The notes under the pieces are model-generated. The model saw nothing but the letters and a program-made list of their open reading frames with translations, did no database searches and was not told where the DNA came from. Of a stretch of DNA of 64,000 nucleotides, positions 54,206 through 56,619 are shown piece by piece (the stretch's first letter is position 1; the number at the start of each line of letters is the position of its first letter). The DNA comes from Escherichia coli. Its GTDB lineage: Bacteria; Pseudomonadota; Gammaproteobacteria; Enterobacterales; Enterobacteriaceae. The translations under genes and the position numbers were made by a program. Location: NCBI RefSeq assembly GCF_024700885.2, contig NZ_CP117016.1. One strand, written 5' to 3'.

Positions 54206-54883
54206 ATGAAGTGGGACTGGATTTTCTTTGATGCCGATGAAACGCTGTTTACCTTTGACTCATTCACCGGCCTGCAGCGGATGTTTCTTGATTACAGCGT
54301 CACCTTTACCGCTGAAGATTTTCAGGACTATCAGGCCGTTAACAAGCCACTGTGGGTGGATTATCAAAACGGCGCGATCACTTCATTACAGCTTCAGCAC
54401 GGGCGGTTTGAGAGCTGGGCCGAACGGCTGAACGTCGAGCCGGGTAAACTCAACGAAGCCTTTATTAATGCGATGGCGGAAATCTGTACGCCGCTGCCGG
54501 GCGCGGTTTCTCTGCTTAACGCCATTCGTGGCAACGCTAAAATTGGCATCATCACCAACGGCTTTAGCGCCTTGCAGCAAGTGCGTCTGGAACGCACGGG
54601 CCTGCGTGATTATTTCGATTTGCTGGTGATTTCCGAAGAAGTTGGCGTTGCCAAACCGAATAAGAAAATTTTCGATTATGCGCTGGAACAGGCGGGCAAT
54701 CCTGACCGTTCACGCGTGCTGATGGTTGGCGACACTGCCGAGTCCGATATTCTCGGTGGCATCAACGCCGGGCTTGCGACCTGCTGGCTGAATGCGCACA
54801 ATCGCGAGCAACCAGAAGGCATCGCGCCTACCTGGACCGTTTCTTCGTTGCACGAACTGGAGCAGCTCCTGTGTAAACACTGA
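54206..54883 (+). CDS. yjjG: HAD-family pyrimidine 5'-nucleotidase YjjG
   Basis: HAD motif I (FFDADETLF); 225 aa; synteny. Confidence 0.85.
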
Positions 54884-54973
54884 TTGCCTCCCCCCCGTTG
54901 ATGGGTAAAATAGCCGCAATTTTTCGTTTTCAACAAGCGCGGCGCGATGCCGCTTACTCAAGAAGAAAGAATT

Positions 54974-55048
54974 ATGACGTTGTCTCCTTATTTGCAAGAG
55001 GTGGCGAAGCGCCGCACTTTTGCCATTATTTCTCACCCCAATAATTAA
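54974..55048 (+). pseudogene. prfC: prfC 5' fragment (first 22 codons of peptide chain release factor 3, then NN-stop) at the prophage junction
   Basis: [22 protein letters not shown] matches the RF3 N-terminus as I recall it; the frame then reads AAT AAT TAA instead of continuing DAGKTT. Confidence 0.6.
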
Positions 55049-55202
55049 GCCAAAATTAAAGCTCTTTTACTCTTTCAAAATCCTTTCAGTTAATTGAGGT
55101 TGAGCCATATAACTCATTTAAATACATTTAGTTATGTGGCTTCTTTAATTGAAAATTCTTTCATGTAACTTTAAATCGATCTGCTTGCTTTCATCAAAAA
55201 TC

Positions 55203-55259
55203 TGTACATGTGCTTGTACATAATGTACAAAACAGCAGAGGTGTTTTTTTATTTGTACA
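55203..55259. promoter_or_regulatory. Four TGTACA hexamers within 57 bp immediately upstream of the integrase gene
   Basis: tgtaca at 55203, 55215, 55224 and 55254, read directly; candidate recombinase or regulator binding sites. Confidence 0.4.
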
Positions 55260-55268
55260 AGGTGAGTA

Positions 55269-56486
55269 ATGGCGCTGTCTGATGCGTGGTTGCGTTCAGT
55301 CGTTGGAAAGGAACGTGATAAGGTTTTGGTTAAATCCGATCGTGATGGTCTGTCTGTCAGAGTATCACCGAAAGGTCGCGTAGTGTTCCAATATCGTTAT
55401 CAATGGGCAGGGAAAGGTGAGCGCCTTGATATCGGAACTTACCCGGCAACTGGATTAAAAGAGGCCAGAGAAGAAGTTATCCGTCTCCGTGGTGAACTCG
55501 AGTCAAACCGCAATCCACGATTAGTCAGGCAGGCTGAAAAACGAAAAGCTACTGAAGCCATGACGGTAGAGTCTGTGATCCGTGCCTGGTATGAAGCATA
55601 TTGTGTAAAAAATAAAAAAGGTTCTGAACAGATACTCCGCTCGTTTGAGCTGCACCTGTTCTCTAAAATCGGGAATATCCCTCACGATGCAGCTACATTG
55701 CATGATTGGTTAGAAGTCCTGGAGCCTCTTAGCACTAAGACTCCAGCAATAGCAGACCGATTGCTAATTAACGCAAAGCAGGCCCATGTCTGGGCGTATA
55801 AGAGAAAGCTCATTGAAACTCGCCCACTGTCGGATATCACGGGTAAAGATATGGATATCCGTAAAGGTCAGAAGAAACGGTTTCTGACACATGATGAAAT
55901 TAAAATCCTTTATGCTGCGATCGATGGTTCTCGAATGGTTCCTAAATACCGGGCCTTCATTAAACTATTGCTGCATTTTGGCTGCCGTAGTTCAGAGCTA
56001 ATTACCGCCAGGGTGGACGATTTTGATTTCATTAATAAAGTATGGACTGTACCACCAGAACGACATAAGACTGGGGAGATAACAGGCGAACCGCTAAAGC
56101 GGCCCATTATTGAACCGGTTGAAGAGCTTATAAAGTACGCTATTTCTATGAACAATGGTTCCGATATGCTTTTTACTAAGGAAGGAAGCAGGGAACCCGT
56201 TGGTCGGACATCATTGCAGTCGCTGCCTTACAATTTAATGCAGTACGCATGGCGGCGTTTGGGGTATCAATTCCCTCATTGGTCTCTTCATGATTTGAGG
56301 CGAACAGCACGAACAAACTTTTCTGATCTTACTGCGCCTCATATTGCAGAAATAATGCTAGGTCATAAACTGCCAGGGGTATGGCAGGTTTATGACAAGA
56401 GCGATTATTTAGATGAACAGCGTAAAGCTTACCAGGCATGGTGGGAGAGAGTTGAATCGATAGTTACTTGTACTTGTTCAGACTAG
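55269..56486 (+). CDS. int: Tyrosine-type phage integrase (P4-like family)
   Basis: 405 aa; N-terminal arm-binding-like region and C-terminal catalytic motifs (..HDLRRTARTN.., ..LGHK..); sits at the junction with truncated prfC. Confidence 0.85.
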   Translation: MALSDAWLRSVVGKERDKVLVKSDRDGLSVRVSPKGRVVFQYRYQWAGKGERLDIGTYPATGLKEAREEVIRLRGELESNRNPRLVRQAEKRKATEAMTVESVIRAWYEAYCVKNKKGSEQILRSFELHLFSKIGNIPHDAATLHDWLEVLEPLSTKTPAIADRLLINAKQAHVWAYKRKLIETRPLSDITGKDMDIRKGQKKRFLTHDEIKILYAAIDGSRMVPKYRAFIKLLLHFGCRSSELITARVDDFDFINKVWTVPPERHKTGEITGEPLKRPIIEPVEELIKYAISMNNGSDMLFTKEGSREPVGRTSLQSLPYNLMQYAWRRLGYQFPHWSLHDLRRTARTNFSDLTAPHIAEIMLGHKLPGVWQVYDKSDYLDEQRKAYQAWWERVESIVTCTCSD

Positions 56487-56619
56487 AACTGACATTTTGC
56501 ATAGGCAGAACGCAATTATGCATATTGCGGTATAATCCCCTTCTTAAAACTGTAAGAACTGCTTGCTAATCCTTGCAGTTTTTGATTATAACATTTTTAT
56601 TTGTTTATTAGGATTTTTG

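Follow-up and report, generated by a model that had tools for sequence, protein, structure and literature searches.

Known systems that integrate at prfC and at other conserved gene starts

Integration of a mobile element into prfC, the gene for release factor 3 (RF3), with restoration of the gene by the element itself, is already known. Such gene-restoring integration was described for an Stx1 phage (Ogura 2007), and the same arrangement was described for SXT (Hochhut and Waldor 1999). Stx1a/Stx2c phages integrated at prfC were also reported in the CC119 study (PMC10132054). Smyshlyaev et al. 2021 (PMC8138268) placed the integrases of the cdt1 phage and of SXT in one prfC-targeting cluster. 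For the locus studied here, which lies in a 64-kb stretch of Escherichia coli DNA (hereafter the window, meaning the whole stretch that was analysed), the closest described systems are phage cdtI (AB285204; Asakura 2007) and phage Ayreon (MF807953). Their integrase, attP, prfC core and replacement N-terminus are as in the window prophage, and bovA lies next to int in all three. The cargo differs: the cdtI and stx phages carry cdt or stx genes, whereas the window prophage instead carries a DinI-like gene, a SLATT gene and a UG17 reverse transcriptase (RT) at its far end.

[quoted passage not shown] However, these elements are conjugative, measure about 100 kb, and carry tra genes and a nearly invariant IntSXT, whereas the window element is a lambdoid phage of about 45 kb. 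No conjugation genes (tra, setCD/setR backbone) are annotated in the corresponding element of E. coli MLI114. Because it is a phage without conjugation genes, the window element is not a member of SXT/R391. A tblastn search against plasmids, aimed at R391/SXT, gave no close relative. The features of the SXT cluster of the IntSXT subgroup, namely N-terminal arm-binding, central and catalytic domains, the R-K-H-R-H-Y residues and insertion in prfC, were found for the window integrase, which would be expected to cluster with IntSXT given the placement of the cdt1 phage integrase in PMC8138268.

Two further systems resemble the locus in part. The integrase of SW-37, a Salmonella phage of Gifsy-1 type that targets lepA, is 46% identical end to end to that of the window, and its target occupies the same structural position as that of the prfC phage, the strand leading into the GTPase P-loop. 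It differs in the target gene (lepA/EF4) and in its arm repeats, which are of TGTCCA type and not TGTACA. Gifsy-1 has been reported to leave lepA function unchanged (PMC4632033). The dusA-specific elements (Farrugia 2015; Durand 2021) also hit a conserved gene 5' end and supply a new promoter and an altered N-terminus, but their target gene and integrase lineage are unrelated, and they are mobilisable islands rather than phages.

The left junction, the attachment core and the integrase region

The window runs from E. coli chromosomal genes into a prophage through the following features.

64-kb window, before the junction: rsmC, holD, rimI and yjjG, E. coli chromosomal genes
54206..54883, + strand: yjjG, the final intact gene on the host side (ORF; RefSeq name in identical genomes)
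54884..54973, + strand: native prfC promoter/leader, the yjjG-prfC intergenic region, identical to the K-12 sequence upstream of attB
54974..55048, + strand: prfC 5' stub, 22 native codons plus Asn-Asn-stop from the phage P' arm (translation; K-12 prfC alignment)
55019..55038, no strand: attachment core, 20-bp block TTTGCCATTATTTCTCACCC, identical in attB and Ayreon attP
55039..55268, + strand: phage P' arm, 100% identical to Ayreon attP, covering the probable int promoter region
55269..56486, + strand: tyrosine integrase of the prfC-targeting (cdtI/SXT) cluster (405-aa ORF; Pfam domains)
56620..58752, + strand: bovA, CHAT-domain cargo next to int (PADLOC BovA, Borvo anti-phage system, E = 1e-241, full length)
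58860..59054, - strand: excisionase, a recombination directionality factor (phrog_1553, E = 1.9e-35)
55039..64000, no strand: left end of the lambdoid prophage, which runs about 36 kb past the window to attR (MLI114 annotation)

When the window was compared with the uninterrupted prfC of K-12, the host sequence was found to stop after ...CACCC at 55038. Past TTTGCCATTATTTCTCACCC, K-12 reads GGACGCCGGTAAG (D-A-G-K, the P-loop), whereas the window reads CAATAATTAA. From 55030 to 58800 the window matches the free phage Ayreon at 100% identity and phage cdtI at 99%. The junction is composed of the left half of K-12 attB, the core and the right half of Ayreon attP, and it is the true attL of a cdtI/Ayreon-type lambdoid prophage; a near-identical integrase, a junction that is the product of attP and attB, and lambdoid gene content all place the element in this type. 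A preliminary description of the locus had proposed a prophage-host junction here, with an intact yjjG-prfC intergenic region, an attachment core inside the prfC 5' coding region and a tyrosine integrase beginning about 220 bp past the stop. All of this was borne out: positions 54884-54973 are identical to K-12, the core lies at 55019-55038 by comparison of attB, attP, attL and attR, and the integrase ORF starts 220 nt after the stub stop. The comparison with an uninterrupted prfC that it had recommended gave the K-12 match ending at 55038. It was also right that 22 intact prfC codons are followed by divergence and a stop, but its codon placement was one base off; the ATG lies at 54974, and the 22 native codons occupy 54974-55039.

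RefSeq labels the prfC stub as an incomplete pseudogene in MLI114 and in WP2-S18-ESBL-08. Upstream of the stub, a promoter scan found a promoter-like site, TTGCCT-16-TAAAAT, at 54884-54911 in the native prfC leader. Integration has parted this leader from the main portion of prfC, and it now faces the stub and int. A terminator scan of the stretch from the stub to int gave no terminator-like site, so that transcription from the orphaned native prfC promoter may continue into int. In the interval 55269-59054, int and bovA (+ strand) converge on xis and the early-left genes (- strand). Given this orientation, the early-left promoter could not drive int, whose transcription would have to depend either on the P' arm or on read-in across the att site.

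The 20-bp block TTTGCCATTATTTCTCACCC occurs once in the window. The core that the preliminary description had proposed, tttgccattatttctcacccc, proved correct except that its final base belongs to the phage. A minimal block of 14 bp, ATTATTTCTCACCC (55025-55038), is common to attB, the cdtI-type attP and the attR of MLI114; in agreement with this, LC727876, the record of an Stx2c phage, annotates a 'duplication due to insertion' of 14 bp. The difference between the two lengths lies in a C/A polymorphism at 55024: attB and attL read TTTGCCATT, and the cdtI attP and the MLI114 attR read TTTGCAATT. Ayreon attP has C at this position, and its block of identity is thereby 20 bp. Since the C/A difference has been kept with its own flank, strand exchange must have taken place to the right of it, within ATTATTTCTCACCC. 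The core covers prfC codons 16/18-22, which encode the beta-strand leading into the GTPase P-loop (AIISHP|DAGKT).

In the P' arm, the hexamer TGTACA occurs four times just before int, starting at 55203, 55215, 55224 and 55254 (span 55203-55259). The 460-bp attP holds eight copies, four in each arm, compared with eight in the entire 64-kb window, and GTACA-type repeats are kept before int in distant relatives. Because the integrase has an arm-binding domain, these repeats are likely to be arm-type Int binding sites, for which we regard them as candidates.

The integrase contains the Pfam domains Arm-DNA-bind_3 (PF13356), Phage_int_M (PF22022) and Phage_integrase (PF00589). It is identical to the Int of phage cdtI at 401 of 405 residues, and the int and bovA region is 100% identical to Ayreon at the nucleotide level over 3,771 nt. 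Residues R240, K267, H341, R344, H366 and Y375 are invariant across 12 integrase relatives; from their positions and general knowledge, we take these to be the R-K-H-R-H-Y catalytic residues. The excisionase, on the strand opposite int, is a weak match to Gifsy-1 Xis. The bovA product carries the RefSeq name 'CHAT domain-containing protein'; bovA is also present in Ayreon and cdtI, whose annotations call it simply hypothetical.

The rebuilt prfC at the far junction

The far end of the prophage was read in E. coli MLI114 (NZ_CP117013.1). The window matches this genome over 59,832 nt with 0 mismatches (100.0% over 16 kb), and because there is no mismatch over this length, MLI114 can serve as a proxy for the window's own genome. 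In MLI114 the prophage measures about 44.7 kb from core to core, which places attR outside the window, as the preliminary description had expected. At this end RefSeq annotates a 1,587-bp prfC without a pseudogene flag, and the genome has a single prfC locus. The attR consists of the phage arm, an ATG, 21 phage codons, the core and then host sequence (GAC GCC GGT AAG...), and the chimeric prfC is in frame with no stop for 528 codons. This attR is the reciprocal recombination product of attL, and the direct core repeat that the preliminary description had suggested seeking is present as the 14-bp ATTATTTCTCACCC, common to attL and the MLI114 attR. Its headline claim, that RF3 is truncated, was rejected once this attR had been read, which gives an uninterrupted, in-frame RF3 of 528 aa. 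The alternative that it had itself named, a replacement 5' end supplied by the element, is what was found: such an end is present in attP and is fused to prfC at attR. For the window genome this settles an annotation question: the prophage does not knock out prfC, the real gene, whose start comes from the phage, is the one at the far junction, and the stub is a by-product.

The source of this start can be read in the free phages. In both Ayreon and cdtI, attP holds a phage ATG and 21 codons to the left of the core, and the Asn-Asn-stop lies past the core. The sequence to the left of the core is AAAGAGACAGCAATT ATG ACA AGC CTT TTG GCC GCA GAG GTA GCG AAA AGA AGA ACC TTT GCC/A ATT ATT TCT CAC CC. 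The phage-borne 5' end is one codon shorter than the native one, so that the rebuilt RF3 has one residue fewer. Its only differences from the native protein fall within its first 7 residues, MTSLLAA, which stand in place of native residues 1-8, MTLSPYLQ. This segment also varies across genera (MSNSPFLQ in Xenorhabdus, MTKQAA in Pseudomonas, MSNTPFLS in Vibrio). Over codons 9-17 (EVAKRRTFA), host and phage differ at 8 nucleotides, and all 8 differences are synonymous (host/phage GTG/GTA, AAG/AAA, CGC/AGA twice, ACT/ACC and GCC/GCA). When random sets of 8 substitutions were drawn, none of 1,000,000 preserved the peptide. By this comparison, the synonymous-only pattern implies that the peptide encoded by the replacement 5' end has probably been under selection.

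The same arrangement was found in many other strains. The attL junction with the integrase was present in 698 of 5,426 complete E. coli genomes, and an attR joining the phage arm to prfC was likewise present in 698 of the 5,426. Of these 698 attR junctions, 4 were read base by base; besides MLI114, the three genomes concerned have an in-frame attR without a pseudogene flag, one of them with an A7T variant. About 13% of complete E. coli genomes thus carry the arrangement, which is relevant to pangenome and prophage surveys. These data also bear on the possibility that natural variation in prfC or an assembly error produced the Asn-Asn-stop, with an integrase that merely happens to lie nearby. 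We consider this extremely improbable. To the right of 55038 the sequence is 100% that of the Ayreon attP right arm and to the left it is identical to K-12 attB; the reciprocal junction lies about 44.7 kb away in the identical genome MLI114, and both junctions recur in the 698 complete genomes. A natural variant, which the preliminary description had allowed for, is ruled out by comparing attB, attP, attL and attR. What was observed directly is the anatomy of these four sites, the fusion in frame and its occurrence in 698 genomes.

Taken together, these data favor the reading, to which we would give a probability of roughly 85%, that the junction in the window is the attL of a cdtI/Ayreon-type prophage whose attP-borne 5' end rebuilds a full-length prfC at the far junction, so that RF3 is restored. 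On this reading the phage integrated by tyrosine-recombinase site-specific recombination at the 14-20 bp core in prfC. The part of attP to the left of the core contributes a short leader of its own, an ATG and 21 codons imitating the prfC 5' end. Integration therefore leaves a dead 24-codon stub beside int, as seen in the window, and at the far junction the remainder of prfC acquires the 5' end brought by the phage and is again a full-length RF3 ORF. The rebuilt gene would be transcribed from the phage arm and would yield active RF3. As such, the locus is a clean example of a mobile element that uses highly conserved coding sequence as a reliable target and, because it brings a spare gene end along, keeps the burden on its host small.

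Expression is the step at which lysogens could nevertheless lose RF3 function: the rebuilt ORF no longer has the authentic promoter and ribosome-binding site and might be silent or far too weakly expressed. In the attR of MLI114, direct reading revealed a Shine-Dalgarno-like sequence, AAGAG, 9 nt before the phage-borne ATG. On the prfC strand of the phage P arm, a strict scan found no sigma-70 promoter, and a relaxed scan found only candidates matching at 8 of 12 positions, which would be weak promoters and would accord with a loss of RF3. Ogura 2007 (PMC2323221) left the transcription and translation of the rebuilt gene open, prfC being non-essential, and Bobay et al. 2013 (PMC3603311) listed prfC among the genes disrupted by phage integration. 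Because prfC is non-essential, an intact ORF by itself is no proof of function. Nonetheless, we regard a functional loss of RF3 as unlikely. The wholly synonymous differences over codons 9-17 argue against it, as do the intact rebuilt prfC ORF at every attR read, the recurrence of a recoded gene start in the attP of the lepA-targeting phage SW-37, and the report that SXT supplies a working promoter at prfC. There is also room for a promoter. In MLI114 and the three sampled genomes, the rebuilt prfC has as its upstream neighbour a DinI-like gene in divergent orientation (frameshifted in one), so that any promoter of the rebuilt gene would have to lie within about 220 bp of phage arm, and this arm is conserved. 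From the synonymous-only pattern, the intact ORFs and the SXT precedent, we infer that the rebuilt prfC is expressed and active, and the 'disrupted' label of Bobay et al. 2013 (PMC3603311) is misleading for this cdtI/Ayreon-type element.

Two LexA-box-like palindromes (CTGT-N8-ACAG) were seen between the DinI-like gene and the rebuilt prfC, at about 4470-4520 of the attR-side sequence of MLI114. Through them, the stretch ahead of the rebuilt prfC might be linked to the SOS response. A terminator-like match at 4520-4499 on the same side was set aside as a prfC terminator, having been reread as one of these two palindromes, which lie in front of the DinI-like gene.

Up to the rebuilt prfC, RefSeq annotates in the MLI114 prophage a lambdoid set comprising repressor/cro, antiterminator, lysis, terminase, portal, capsid and long-tail genes. 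This set speaks to the idea that the element is a decayed, immobile remnant and the junction a fossil without recombination function. In favor of such decay, the cargo regions are unlike those of Ayreon, with DRT/SLATT genes at the far end. Yet the two arms, int and xis are intact and show full identity to Ayreon, whose deposited record is that of a free phage (host E. coli K12), and the lambdoid gene set of MLI114 is complete, with no pseudogene flags in the region. A remnant is therefore quite improbable, and if the element were one, the conclusion on prfC would not change. The far-end cargo, at 5004-6903 of the attR-side sequence of MLI114, consists of a SLATT-domain protein and a reverse transcriptase that matches PADLOC RT_UG17 (E = 6e-158), a defence-associated RT system. 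This cargo adjoins attR in the position held by the cdt genes in cdtI.

Integrase relatives and a second GTPase gene

Relatives of the integrase were surveyed by a species-dereplicated scan, which yielded 80 loci. A prfC stub was found at 44 of the 80, and a lepA stub (...IRNFSIIAHI) at 11; SW-37 is an additional lepA case. The other sites were a LysR-type 5' end, MDIKQLIYL (3 loci), the 3' end of alaS upstream of int (5 loci) and other or unassigned sequences (15 loci), and 2 loci had too little upstream sequence to be placed. The non-GTPase targets were identified by eye from peptide sequences; by this inspection, the 23 loci without a GTPase stub include some with an alaS 3' end, some with a plsX 3' end and some with a LysR-type fragment or 5' end. 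In all cases, stubs of GTPase genes end 196-235 nt before int. Integrases with 85-50% identity to that of the window, from Salmonella, Xenorhabdus, Shewanella, Pseudomonas, Acidovorax and Vibrio, are preceded by a prfC stub ending ...AIISHP.

The attP of SW-37 shows how the lepA case is built. It holds a mini-ORF (MKNIRNFSIIAHIDN, then a stop) at positions 654-701 of the extracted sequence, 198 nt before the integrase gene. This mini-ORF reads MKNIRNFSIIAHID-N-stop and encodes exactly the first 14 residues of LepA, synonymously recoded. Both attP types that were read (prfC in Ayreon/cdtI, lepA in SW-37) thus carry a synonymously recoded replacement 5' end. The prfC and lepA target DNAs have 13 of 20 consensus positions in common because both encode the same GTPase motif. 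In a neighbor-joining tree with 100 bootstraps, whose deep backbone was poorly supported, the enterobacterial lepA group received 98 and the Acinetobacter lepA group 100, and a clade joining the two received 0. This topology suggests more than one switch between prfC and lepA targets.

These findings raise the possibility, which we advance only tentatively, that this integrase clade repeatedly uses the P-loop-leading codons (F-x-I-I-x-H) at the 5' ends of paralogous translational GTPase genes. The census suggests that the spare-gene-end solution extends to a second GTPase gene, lepA, and the targeting of paralogous GTPases is a modest lead. No paper linking the prfC and lepA targets was found in the literature searched, coverage of which was incomplete. 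Two scans of viral contigs returned only integrases at least 97% identical, mostly on contigs cut at int, and gave no diversity of attP; a megablast search with the SW-37 attP against E. coli genomes gave no match.

Both phage-borne gene starts, the prfC type and the lepA type of SW-37, recode arginine from CGC/CGT to AGA, and the two AGA codons of the prfC mimic stand side by side (codons 11-12). AGA is a rare codon in E. coli. The recoding fits the AT-rich composition of phages and might lower translation of the rebuilt genes; for prfC, the AGA-AGA pair is in this respect a point against restored RF3 function.

Several individual loci deserve mention. In Moraxella phage Mcat15 (Int 41% identical), no GTPase stub was found upstream of int; the upstream sequence, judged by eye, ends in an acyl-CoA thioesterase-like 3' end. 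DYWT01000186.1, a 3.2-kb contig labelled as part of a Sporosarcina psychrophila MAG, encodes an integrase with 98% identity and also holds a prfC stub of E. coli type; it is probably a mis-binned Escherichia contig. Finally, Xenorhabdus hominickii has three copies of a 48%-identical integrase on three contigs of a single genome, with upstream sequences identical over the 420 nt inspected. Each copy adjoins, as judged by eye, a fragment of a LysR-type regulator, which suggests a multi-copy element or a repeated target.
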